Source of the DNA: Staphylothermus marinus F1
GTDB taxonomy: Archaea; Thermoproteota; Thermoprotei_A; Sulfolobales; Desulfurococcaceae
NCBI RefSeq assembly: GCF_000015945.1
Contig: NC_009033.1
Coordinates: forward strand, 600,001 to 632,000
Reading direction: 5' to 3'
Length of the DNA: 32,000 nucleotides
The translations under genes were made by a program, and so were the position numbers. The notes under the pieces are model-generated. The model did no database searches, was not told where the DNA came from, and worked only from the letters and a program-made list of their open reading frames with translations. Shown here in pieces: positions 2,741 to 27,920 of this stretch (the first letter of the stretch is position 1; each line of letters begins with the position of its first letter).

Positions 2741-3023
2741 CTTCCAATTCTTTCTATGTTGTTACTTAGCTGCAAGCTTCTTAGCATTGCTGGGACAGGT
2801 CTGCTTTCAATTCTTTCTGTGTTGTTACATCGCAGGGGCAGTTCTAGGAACCATTGTCCCCGGTATCCTTTCAATTCTTTCTGTGTTGCTACATATGAGA
2901 ATAAGAGCTTCGAGGACATAGATAGAGAAAGAATCTTTCAATTCTTTCTGTGTTGCTACCCCCAAGGAATCGTTAAGTGCTTTCTGGGCAAACACTAGCT
3001 TTCAATTCTTTCTGTGTTGCTAC
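2741..3023 (-). CRISPR. Small CRISPR array: 5 repeats of 25 nt, 4 spacers (38, 39, 42, 39 nt)
   Basis: Repeats lie at 2741-2765, 2804-2828, 2868-2892, 2935-2959 and 2999-3023. The plus-strand consensus is CTTTCAATTCTTTCTGTGTTGCTAC. The three right-hand repeats are identical, 2804-2828 has 1 mismatch and 2741-2765 has 3 mismatches, so degeneration points to the trailer end. The reverse complement GTAGCAACACAGAAAGAATTGAAAG ends in ATTGAAAG, the canonical 8-nt crRNA 5' handle. The array is therefore transcribed on the minus strand with its leader to the right. Confidence 0.93.
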
Positions 3024-15971: not shown

Positions 15972-16434
15972 CTTTCAAAACATATCCACAATACTGGCAC
16001 TCCAACATAATTGGATTAGTTGATTTTAGCTTAAACAATGACTTAATAGGCTCGTTTTTCTTCCTAGATATACATGTTGGGTTCGGGCACTTGATTAAGC
16101 CCTTAACTATGCTTGGAGGTTCAACTCTTTGCTTCTCCACAACCTTGTATTCTTTGATAACATTTATTGTAGCAGTTGGCGCTATTAATGCTATGAGACT
16201 TAATTCTTTCATTGATAAGAATTTTTCTTCGATTTTAACAATGTCTTTTCTACCAAGCTTTCTGCTTTCAACATTCATTACTAAAGCTACACGTAATCCT
16301 TCACTACCAGTTATTCCAAGCACTCTTAAAACCTTCAATGCTTTACCAGCAGGTATATGATCTATAACTATTCCATTCCTAATTTTCGAGACTATTAGCT
16401 TATTTGGATATTTTGATAGATTAGTGGGGTTCAC
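15940..16434 (-). CDS. pyrI: Aspartate carbamoyltransferase regulatory chain
   Basis: 164 aa. It has IRNGIVIDHIPAG and the C-terminal zinc motif CPNPTC...C.YC. The GTG start is preceded by GGTGAGGTG. Confidence 0.9.
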   Translation of the reverse strand: MNPTNLSKYPNKLIVSKIRNGIVIDHIPAGKALKVLRVLGITGSEGLRVALVMNVESRKLGRKDIVKIEEKFLSMKELSLIALIAPTATINVIKEYKVVEKQRVEPPSIVKGLIKCPNPTCISRKKNEPIKSLFKLKSTNPIMLECQYCGYVLKGDEIEDYIES

Positions 16435-16613
16435 TCCATAAACACCTCACCAATGTAATGATTAATAGGATGTGGATGAAGAGCTCTGCGTGGTAGGTGC
16501 GGAGCCCCGATAACCCCCTCAATGAAGAAATGAAAACCCGACCCAAGAGGGGGAAGCCCCTGCAAATACTCATAACATCCAAAATAACCAAAAAATAAAG
16601 CACGAGTAACCAC
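16427..16613 (-). repeat. GC-rich repeated element, copy A, filling the pyrB-pyrI spacer (sense to the operon)
   Basis: The reverse complement of 16490-16563 matches 27410-27483 at 64/74 positions by hand alignment. Flanking similarity continues with indels out to 16427 and 16613. The core is about 60% GC against about 35% background. It contains the helix CCCCCUC/GAGGGGG (plus-strand coordinates 16547-16553 and 16514-16520). Confidence 0.8.
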
Positions 16614-16633
16614 AACAAGTTTCTTCTCCATAC

Positions 16634-24850: not shown

Positions 24851-24954
24851 GCGGCGGTCGTCTAGCCTGGACTAGGACGCCGGCCTGCCATACGGGTTCG
24901 TATAACCGTGTAGAACGCCGGAGATCCCGGGTTCAAATCCCGGCCGCCGCACCA
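24851..24954 (+). tRNA. tRNA-Gly (GCC) with a 25-nt intron at 37/38 and encoded CCA
   Basis: The cloverleaf is GCGGCGG-UC-GUCU-AGCCUGGACUA-GGAC-G-CCGGC-CUGCCA[intron 24891-24915]C-GCCGG-AGAUC-CCGGG-UUCAAAU-CCCGG-CCGCCGC-A-CCA. The anticodon lies at 24887-24889. Confidence 0.9.
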
Positions 24955-25614: not shown

Positions 25615-25682
25615 ACACCCACATAAAACAAAATATAAATTATAAAAATAAAAACCCCTTATAAAACAAATATATTATAGGT

Positions 25683-25850
25683 CCCGCGGTAGCTCAGCGG
25701 CAGAGCGCCCGGCTGTAGTGGGGAAAATCTGAGCCCCCCACCCGCCAGACATCCCCGGAAACCTGGGGAAATAGAATGATGGCGGGGCGGCGAATAGAGG
25801 GCTCAGCAGATACCGGGTGGTCGGGGGTTCAAGTCCCCCCCGCGGGACCA
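25683..25850 (+). tRNA. tRNA-Tyr (GUA) with a 93-nt intron at 37/38 and encoded CCA
   Basis: The exons are CCCGCGG-UA-GCUC-AGCGGCA-GAGC-G-CCCGG-CUGUAG[intron 25719-25811]A-CCGGG-UGGUC-GGGGG-UUCAAGU-CCCCC-CCGCGGG-A-CCA. The anticodon lies at 25715-25717. The C1-G72 pair is the archaeal/eukaryal tRNA-Tyr identity pair. Confidence 0.9.
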
Positions 25851-25865
25851 TTTAATTTATTATAA

Positions 25866-27213: not shown

Positions 27214-27371
27214 TATGTTTGAATCAGTTGATTAGCTAATATAAAATATGTTAACTTAACTTGTTAAATTGGGGAAAATTTTCGAGGCTTCTAAGATACT
27301 TAGCTAATTTAACATCCACTTCGTACAAGTATTTATCGAAGTAAGTATTAAAGATCATTAGTAAGTTTCCC

Positions 27372-27385
27372 AGTAAGTTTATATA
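27372..27385 (+). promoter_or_regulatory. BRE/TATA-like promoter upstream of repeated element copy B
   Basis: The sequence is AGTAAGTTTATATA. An 8-bp TATA at 27378-27385 predicts a TSS near G27410, which is where the conserved core of the element begins. Confidence 0.4.
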
Positions 27386-27553
27386 GTGGTTGCCCATGCT
27401 TTATTGTTTGCACGGGCTTCCCCCTCTTGGGTTGGGGCTTCATCCCTTCATTGAGGGGGCTATCGGGGCTCCACACAGACCACTTTTGAGCCCTTCATCC
27501 GCATTTCCCAAATCATTAACCATTATATTAGTGAGGGTTTATAAAGCGAACCC
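27386..27553 (+). ncRNA. GC-rich repeated element, copy B: candidate stand-alone structured small RNA (family not recognised)
   Basis: It is homologous to the pyrB-pyrI spacer. The core 27410-27483 is about 64% GC and 64/74 identical to copy A. Potential helices are 27420-27426/27453-27459 and 27466-27471/27488-27493. Short T-tracts lie downstream at 27574-27577 and 27583-27586. The repeat itself is certain; RNA status is inferred. Confidence 0.45.
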
Positions 27554-27920
27554 AATAATTAAAACAATCATGGTTTTCACAATTTTCCAAAACAACCATG
27601 GTATAGTATCCAAATAAGCAAATAGTCTCTAATGCCGTATAGAAATATATCATTGCCTCTTTTCTTAACATCGTTATACAAGTTTTCAACACAATTGTTT
27701 GATTTATATTCATCGACGATTTCTTGTTCTAATAGTAGCTTCTATTTTTCTAGGTCAATATTACGTATTATATCAACTATATTATCAACCACAAGATCAT
27801 ATAGAGACATTTTCATCAACCACATAGATTAGATATTTTCATTTAATCAAAAAGTTTTCTTTAAATCTAAACTAGTATTAATTAAGCTCGATAAGATTAG
27901 ATATAGTTGAGGGGAAATCA

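Follow-up and report, generated by a model that had tools for sequence, protein, structure and literature searches.

GC islands in the AT-rich genomes of hyperthermophiles are a classic signal of structured RNA, and the GC-rich Hgc RNAs of such organisms, which Klein, Misulovin and Eddy are said to have described in 2002, are reportedly single-copy cellular RNA genes. TnpB is an RNA-guided nuclease, and its omega-RNA (or reRNA) is reportedly known from ISDra2 and its relatives, in work of 2021 attributed to Karvelis and to Altae-Tran. Omega-RNAs overlap the 3' end of tnpB and run to the right end of the element, with the adjacent flank serving as guide, and gene-less relatives, the palindrome-associated transposable elements (PATEs), often encode omega-RNAs that are used in trans (Meers 2023; PMC10055086). 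Elements of the IS607 family use a core dinucleotide and make no target duplication (Zedaveinyte 2023; PMC10690162). For Staphylothermus marinus F1, the part of the genome paper that deals with repeats reports 14 copies of a ~260-nt repeat, read as MITEs (miniature inverted-repeat transposable elements) that have inverted repeats at their flanks and resemble the region upstream of four IS607-family (TnpB) genes with a single open reading frame (ORF), Smar_0083, Smar_0767, Smar_1150 and Smar_1546 (Anderson 2009, BMC Genomics 10:145; PMC2678158). Here we analyze a GC-rich element that occurs twice in a 32,000-nt stretch of the same genome (NC_009033.1, positions 600,001 to 632,000; the window, numbered from its first letter): copy A, at 27.4 kb, and copy B, between pyrB and pyrI. 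A first-pass annotation had read copy A as the stand-alone gene of a new RNA family. We find a mobile, gene-less TnpB derivative, a known class and not a new RNA family; both copies are very probably MITEs that arose by internal deletion from a TnpB-only insertion sequence of the IS200/IS605-IS607 group.

A repeat search of the window recovers the two copies as inverted-repeat arms (27407-27483 and 16490-16566) of 77 nt with 87% complementarity, and blastn aligns them at 79% identity over 148 nt (E 1.5e-29). Their longest common exact stretch is 19 bases, and the conserved 19-mer and 26-mer blocks occur twice each in the window vs zero expected in shuffles. The first-pass annotation was therefore right to place two diverged copies here, and right about the GC-rich core (62% GC in copy A and 60% in copy B vs 36% for the window) and about a 27-nt stretch found only in the pyr copy (16567-16593). 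It ended the element too early, at 27553: after a 37-nt hairpin present only in copy A, similarity resumes with ATCCAAATAAGCWAATAGTCTC at 27608-27629 / 16409-16388, and the unit runs to 27626. Copy A is 239 nt long (27388-27626) and copy B 221 nt (16391-16611); copy A is without the 27 nt, copy B without ~44 nt, and a composite of the two would be ~265 nt. A covariance model matches copy A at 27411-27498 (-) with 104.9 bits and copy B at 16476-16562 (+) with 103.4 bits, and it finds no further copy in the window or in the collected related loci. The copies and their parts are as follows.

27388..27626, minus strand: copy A, read as a complete MITE of 239 nt (junctions fixed by alignment with the empty-site contigs L045, L046 and L055; ends homologous to the TnpB element on metagenomic contig L060, described below)
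27388..27548, minus strand: copy A, apparent last ~55 codons of tnpB plus right end, putative omega-RNA scaffold region (blastn, blastx, covariance model, folds)
27392-27417, minus strand: copy A, terminal stem (fold)
27420-27426/27453-27459, minus strand: copy A, helix CCCCCTC/GAGGGGG (fold, pair counts)
27466-27471/27488-27493, minus strand: copy A, helix GGGCTC/GAGCCC (fold, pair counts)
27549..27626, minus strand: copy A, left end of 78 nt, beginning ACTATTTGCTTATTTGGATA and carrying a hairpin at 27569-27600 (terminus matches copy B and the left-end start of L060; hairpin from fold)
16391..16611, plus strand: copy B, read as a MITE of 221 nt without the left-end hairpin and with the 27-nt segment 16567-16593 (empty sites in relatives; presence in all four S. 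marinus samples; covariance model; blastn)

Both copies can be compared with sites that lack them. The S. marinus samples were four read sets in Logan, whose contigs are assembled at k=31. Copy A is present in F1, SRR4046664 and SRR5453780 and absent from SRR5453782 and ERR15087768, both of which carry an intact 263-aa minus-strand gene at the site (contigs including L045, L046, L052 and L055). This gene has a weak match to hemerythrin (Pfam E 6e-6), and an intact copy lies at 690-1481 of L045. In F1 the 239 nt of copy A stand, in sense orientation, in place of 456 bp of the gene (residues ~67-219), leaving two fragments.

27251..27387, minus strand: C-terminal fragment of the disrupted 263-aa gene, including the TATA-like box at 27372-27385 (intact gene in L045 and L052)
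27627..27825, minus strand: N-terminal fragment of the same gene (alignment with empty-site contigs)

Copy A is a recent, strain-polymorphic insertion. The hemerythrin-like gene is a pseudogene in F1, and both end points of the deletion fall at AGTC/GAC sites, which hints, as speculation, at a transposase-mediated adjacent deletion. The same comparison bears on the promoter that the first-pass annotation had assigned to copy A, a box resembling a B recognition element (BRE) and TATA. The sequence AGTAAGTTTATATA is indeed there, at 27372-27385, but it lies outside the element and inside the coding sequence of the 263-aa gene, is identical in strains without the element, and is replaced at copy B by pyrI coding sequence, so it is not a promoter belonging to the element.

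Copy B is carried by all four S. marinus samples, and its site is empty in an alignment of S. hellenicus and two further relatives. The pyrB and pyrI genes of S. hellenicus are separated by 2 nt, with no insertion, and pyrI begins MEEKLVV / MEEKLVVTKIRNG. Relative to that sequence, the 221 nt of copy B are inserted in F1 after ...AAACTTGTTGT and before CTCGAAAATT, within codon 7 of the old pyrI, and the F1 sequence leading up to the insertion reads ...CTTGTTGT. Copy B is an old, fixed insertion that has lost its left-end hairpin and whose stems have decayed.

Read on the tnpB sense strand, every junction has the form NGAC / element ... CAACC / AC, where the slash marks the boundary, and the right end stops at ...GGGCAACC/AC. 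On the 5' side the flanks read GAGAC, GAGAC and CGGAC, and the empty sites GTGAC, AAGAC and GAGAC, consistent with NGAC over six sites; the intact allele at the copy A site reads AAGAC/TATATAAACTTACTGGG. The dinucleotide AC (GT on the plus strand) stands at both ends of the element and once in each empty site, at copy A as GT at 27386-27387 and 27625-27626, and there is no target duplication beyond this shared AC/GT. Insertion was thus precise and next to an apparent NGAC motif. By eye, an imperfect subterminal inverted match can be made between GCTT(T)ATT(G/T)TT(G) and CCAAATAAGC; IS605 and IS607 elements do not require inverted repeats. The junctions fit IS607-type recombination at a core dinucleotide and an IS605-type target motif equally. 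An IS200/IS605-type insertion in the orientation of the first-pass annotation (target TWGT, end TAGT) was also considered and was superseded once the tnpB sense strand was known.

That strand was given by a parent-like element in metagenomes. A metagenome scan with a gapped helix-1 pattern matched two JGI contigs of one locus (L060 and L061), and two further contigs of other sources (L064 and L065) carry the same element; a 26-mer pattern for the second conserved block had no match in the metagenome scan. On L060 a 412-aa ORF ends with a stop codon at 1614-1616; its last ~100 nt contain the core (1500-1583) in sense orientation, and the right end follows at 1645/1647. The encoded protein scores 119 bits against NCBIfam guided_TnpB (cut-off 100) and matches Pfam Cas12f1-like_TNB (1.6e-15), OrfB_IS605 and RuvC_1. 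It is far under the cut-offs of the NCBIfam IS607_TnpB and IS200_TnpB models. By tblastn it matches annotated TnpB genes of Sulfolobus plasmids and of Acidianus two-tailed virus ATV at 24-32% identity, relatives too distant for their right ends to be aligned for covariation.

The homology of the S. marinus copies to this element, which comes from another organism (contigs of 39-43% GC) and not from F1, covers the core and both ends. Copy A shares 88.7% identity over 71 nt with L060 1520-1590 (blastn E 1e-21); for copy B the alignment with L060 spans 86 nt at 81.4% (E 2e-17). A remnant reading frame in copy A, ...WSPDSPLNEGMKPQPKRGKPV, aligns with TnpB residues 372-405 (blastx E 2e-11). At the right end all three share GCAYGRGYAACC followed by AC, and at the left end all three begin ACTATT (the L060 element starts AC/TATTTT at 106-108), while TAGATTAGTGGGGTT of the left end agrees at 14 of 15 positions with the bases that immediately precede the tnpB ATG in L060. 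Unlike the core, the rest of the L060 insertion sequence cannot be aligned to the F1 element. The GC enrichment is also found in the parent, where the last 150 nt of the insertion sequence have 57% GC vs 39% for tnpB as a whole. Judging from these alignments, the element consists of a left end, the last ~55 codons of tnpB and a right end, its GC-rich core corresponding to the tnpB 3' end plus the right end. In the parent, the 27-nt segment of copy B has its counterpart in the TnpB C-terminal tail with the stop region, which suggests that the segment is ancestral and was lost from copy A. By position and homology, the core is probably an omega-RNA scaffold region. The strand that corresponds to tnpB is the minus strand of the window for copy A and the plus strand for copy B, so a functional RNA would be expected there, opposite to the strand chosen in the first-pass annotation.

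These data leave little room for an independent novel RNA gene on the plus strand at 27386-27553, expressed from its own BRE/TATA at 27372-27385 and with a second copy in the pyrB-pyrI spacer. In its favor, the helices fold as described, Rfam holds no match, a TATA-like sequence is in place, and the changes in copy B give G-U pairs when the plus-strand RNA is read. These changes, however, all come from copy B, where each is a C-to-T substitution in the coding strand of pyr, a pattern that biased mutation accounts for as well. Moreover, the box is flanking coding sequence, kept where the element is missing and lacking at copy B, the empty sites are precise, both termini are homologous to those of a TnpB insertion sequence, the unit reaches 73 nt past the proposed gene, and the core, read on the opposite strand, is tnpB sense sequence. 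We regard such a gene as very unlikely.

A gene for a small protein is likewise extremely improbable. The 75-aa ORF 27390..27617 that the first-pass annotation listed does exist and overlies copy A, and it shares GLPPLG...IGAPH with a 66-aa counterpart at pyr; the alternative would be that this pair, or the minus-strand frame of the tnpB tail, encodes a functional peptide. Yet the common frame is broken by indels, the tnpB-sense frame holds stop codons in both copies, and GC-rich sequence stays open by chance. Among 5.8 billion proteins no homologue was found for the peptides of either strand, although for the tnpB-tail peptides this null is a false negative of the word index, since several 5-mers of the query do occur in the JGI TnpB tail. 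Constraint thus appears to act on the nucleic acid, as had been proposed.

Several side observations concern the parent element and copy A. Contig L064 (SRR7051159; equal to L060 80-1675) consists of the TnpB element plus exactly 30 nt on each side, as expected of a k=31 graph in which filled and empty alleles coexist, which confirms the boundaries; within that community, then, the parent element is apparently polymorphic and hence mobile. About 1.2 kb from it lies a gene for 363 aa (L061 2654-3745 (+), L062 310-1401 (-)) for which only PF27229 (SSO2105_N) is on record; a Pfam hmmscan of it found nothing, and by its motifs GGVDVNADRINLAIVD it looks like a second, divergent TnpB-like protein. 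In SRR5453780, copy A (L054 1-30 and L047 1-60, equal to 27408-27437 and 27566-27626 of the window) is bounded by junctions identical to those of F1. Its inner hairpin resembles that of copy B, with GGGTCGGGTT in place of GGGTTGGGGC, and its left-end hairpin is 5 nt shorter; this may reflect gene conversion between MITE copies. Finally, a palindromic TATA-like octamer, TTTATAAA, occurs at 27538-27545 in the tnpB-remnant part of copy A, where copy B has TCCATAAA (tnpB-sense strand) and L060 is without such a box; should it drive transcription toward the minus strand, the RNA would begin ~125 nt ahead of the right end.

The window itself contains no tnpB, and other copies of the element have to be sought through the assembly graph and the literature. 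In all four samples the Logan contigs break inside both copies, even where copy A is absent, which implies that other loci share exact 30-mers with them (an inference from the assembly graph, not a direct count). Most likely, copies A and B belong to the 14-copy MITE family reported in 2009. As far as the repeat section of that paper goes, the two accounts agree in genome, in length (~260 nt there, a composite of ~265 nt here), in the truncation of some copies, in what look like imperfect inverted repeats near the ends, in similarity to the region upstream of TnpB genes and in the disruption of ORFs (PMC2678158). They differ in that the two disrupted ORFs named in that section are neither the hemerythrin-like gene nor pyrI, and the paper, which predates omega-RNA, is silent there on the tnpB 3' end or an RNA (PMC2678158). 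A plain segmental duplication between the pyrB-pyrI spacer and the 27.4-kb locus, with no mobile element, would account for there being only two copies in the window and for a shared right-hand block that overlaps the pyrI 5' end. Against it, the pyr spacer is itself an insertion, which S. hellenicus and two relatives lack; an unrelated metagenome has a homologous module at the end of tnpB; the contig breaks imply more copies; and the repeat section of the genome paper counts 14 such repeats (PMC2678158). The chance of such a duplication is accordingly negligible.

Compared with the RNAs described from other systems, the S. marinus element was flagged, like the Hgc RNAs, as a GC island in an AT-rich hyperthermophile genome; unlike them, it is repeated and mobile, has empty sites and derives from an insertion sequence. 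Like the TnpB omega-RNAs, its core overlaps the tnpB 3' end up to the right-end boundary and has several stems and a putative guide in the flanking DNA; it differs in having no sequence or Rfam similarity to them, in a structure supported by only one compensatory pair and in being detached from tnpB. The PATEs of Geobacillus stearothermophilus also have a left and a right end without a protein gene, a right end that keeps the guide-RNA scaffold region, a presumed supply of TnpB and transposase in trans, no target duplication and a short motif, here apparently NGAC, flanking the left end (PMC10055086). The S. marinus element differs from them in being archaeal and hyperthermophilic, in a core far richer in GC than the genome, and in ends and an NGAC motif that are unrelated to those of ISGst elements (PMC10055086). 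Like IS607, it leaves no target duplication, and one dinucleotide (AC in this element, GG in IS607) recurs at the two junctions and stands once in the empty site (PMC10690162); IS607 is also the family in which the repeat section of the genome paper places the F1 TnpB genes (PMC2678158). What look like weak inverted repeats would set it apart, as IS607 is said to lack them (PMC10690162).

The RNA side of the argument draws on structure and on conservation. Across L060, copy A and copy B (three distinct sequences), 89.9% of the positions in four sense-strand helices are paired; the three core stems of copy A are at 27466-93, 27420-59 and 27392-417. Helix 2 (CCCCCUC/GAGGGGG) is invariant, helix 1 has one compensatory change from C-G to G-C plus one U-G, and the terminal stem of copy A has G-U pairs that on the other strand would be A-C. 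The two helices named in the first-pass annotation thus fold as it described and are kept in a distant homologue. The right end of L060 folds with z = -2.87. As anticipated, Rfam has no known family for the element: no match reached the gathering threshold for either copy, matches at E<=10 were at chance level (E > 2), and the L060 right end was without a match. A split-tRNA half or tRNA intron was also considered and dropped, as the copies have no tRNA-like match. Nor did wider searches return relatives: blastn against plasmid and phage collections found no match, viral-contig scans gave chance matches only, and a 17-mer scan of 185,579 species genomes gave 42 matches with no similarity past the 17-mer, F1's own copies not being among them, so that its genome seems to lie outside the searchable set; blastn of both copies against these 42 loci extended none beyond about 30 nt.

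Other observations weigh against the reading of the copies as TnpB-derived MITEs that keep an omega-RNA region. Covariation is not significant, with one compensatory pair in three sequences and 175 of 500 shuffles doing as well. The F1 copies fold with weak z-scores, -0.71 and -1.37 for the sense strand and -1.85 and -1.65 for the opposite one, and the substitutions in copy B are G-U pairs on the antisense strand and mismatches, in three stems, on the sense strand. On the side of mobility, the 456-bp replacement at copy A is not the product of a simple insertion, IS605-type and IS607-type mechanisms are indistinguishable here, no transposase able to mobilize the element was identified and no serine recombinase was seen in the material analyzed. 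The link to the F1 tnpB genes and to the 14 copies comes from the homologue of another organism and from the repeat section of the genome paper (PMC2678158).

Part of this evidence would suit MITEs whose GC-rich hairpins act only as DNA, as a right end recognized by the transposase, or are simply an undecayed, dual-coded tnpB tail, with no omega-RNA made from the copies. IS200/IS605 ends do work as folded single-stranded DNA (PMC10055086), and the unremarkable z-scores on both strands, the covariation short of significance and the persistence of copy B despite mismatches in three stems all speak for this. On the other hand, a core that is 88.7% alike in an organism of different base composition, when the rest is unalignable, points to strong constraint; the core lies where the omega-RNA scaffolds of characterized TnpB elements lie, and the last 150 nt of L060 have 57% GC vs 39% for tnpB. 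We consider this reading of the hairpins improbable.

If the TnpB-derived MITEs do keep a guide-RNA function, their high GC and three stems may be features of an RNA that has to fold at ~90 C. The omega-RNA from a MITE transcript would carry a guide matching the vacated site, and TnpB from elsewhere in the genome could then re-cut empty sites, so that the MITE is kept. A more elaborate proposal would be that the copies are free-standing TnpB guide-RNA genes in a hyperthermophilic archaeon. Copy A would then be transcribed from the promoter of the disrupted gene into an omega-RNA aimed at the intact allele of sister strains, and the 456-bp replacement, which ends exactly between two NGAC sites, would stem from a rearrangement driven by transposase or TnpB. 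Copy B would have been domesticated for the PyrI start, its sense strand giving an RNA antisense to the pyrB-pyrI junction. Taken together, this combination is possible but doubtful.

At copy B, the insertion changed the start of pyrI.

16629..16631, minus strand: original pyrI ATG, 2 nt after the pyrB stop, which now opens a 66-codon ORF through copy B (S. hellenicus alignment, MEEKLVVTKIRNG at the same start)
16432..16451, minus strand: present pyrI start, GTG at 16434-16432, with a Shine-Dalgarno-like GGTGAGGTG at 16451-16443 (translation; both lie on the antisense strand of copy B)

The stop codon TGA of the 66-codon ORF (16433-16431) overlaps the pyrI GTG at 16434. PyrI, the regulatory subunit of aspartate carbamoyltransferase, is annotated in F1 as a protein of 164 aa (ABN69707.1), identical to the window product from GTG 16434, and gene callers return the same 164-aa PyrI in the four S. 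marinus samples. Its first 12 residues are encoded by the antisense strand of the left end of copy B. The rebuilt start is found in all four samples and not in S. hellenicus. We infer that copy B has been exapted, and that pyrI now takes its ribosome-binding site, its GTG start and its first 12 codons from the antisense strand. As a transposon copy B looks immobile and decaying, and it may be retained because pyrI now depends on it. We also considered that copy B might be an mRNA intron of the archaeal kind in pyrI, since MEKKLVVSKIRNG is again in frame once the copy is taken out. The same holds for any precise insertion, however, and the intron was also dropped because the context of copy A is not comparable and TnpB homology explains the element.

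These findings suggest that the GC-island signal also detects transposon-borne guide-RNA modules, and that an empty-site comparison combined with one search for a parent element resolves such cases quickly. They leave the established picture of TnpB elements unchanged. What they add is a concrete case, from an archaeon growing at ~90 C, of a gene-less element that appears to keep the omega-RNA region, together with natural presence/absence alleles and a candidate target motif, NGAC, for TnpB biology, and a fixed copy that appears to have rebuilt the start of an essential gene of the pyrimidine pathway.

Elsewhere in the window, a small CRISPR array at 2741-3023 (+) has five repeats (Rfam CRISPR-DR27) spaced by 63-67 nt, and no cas gene was seen among the large ORFs of the window. 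Two Rfam tRNAs missed by ARAGORN, of 101 nt at 24851-24951 (+) and 165 nt at 25683-25847 (+), score 51 bits each and presumably contain introns; a 58-aa ORF at 25675..25851 (-) merely overlies the second of them. The amylase encoded at 29124-31214 matches the maltogenic amylase of Staphylothermus marinus, PDB 4AEE, with 100% identity across 696 residues.

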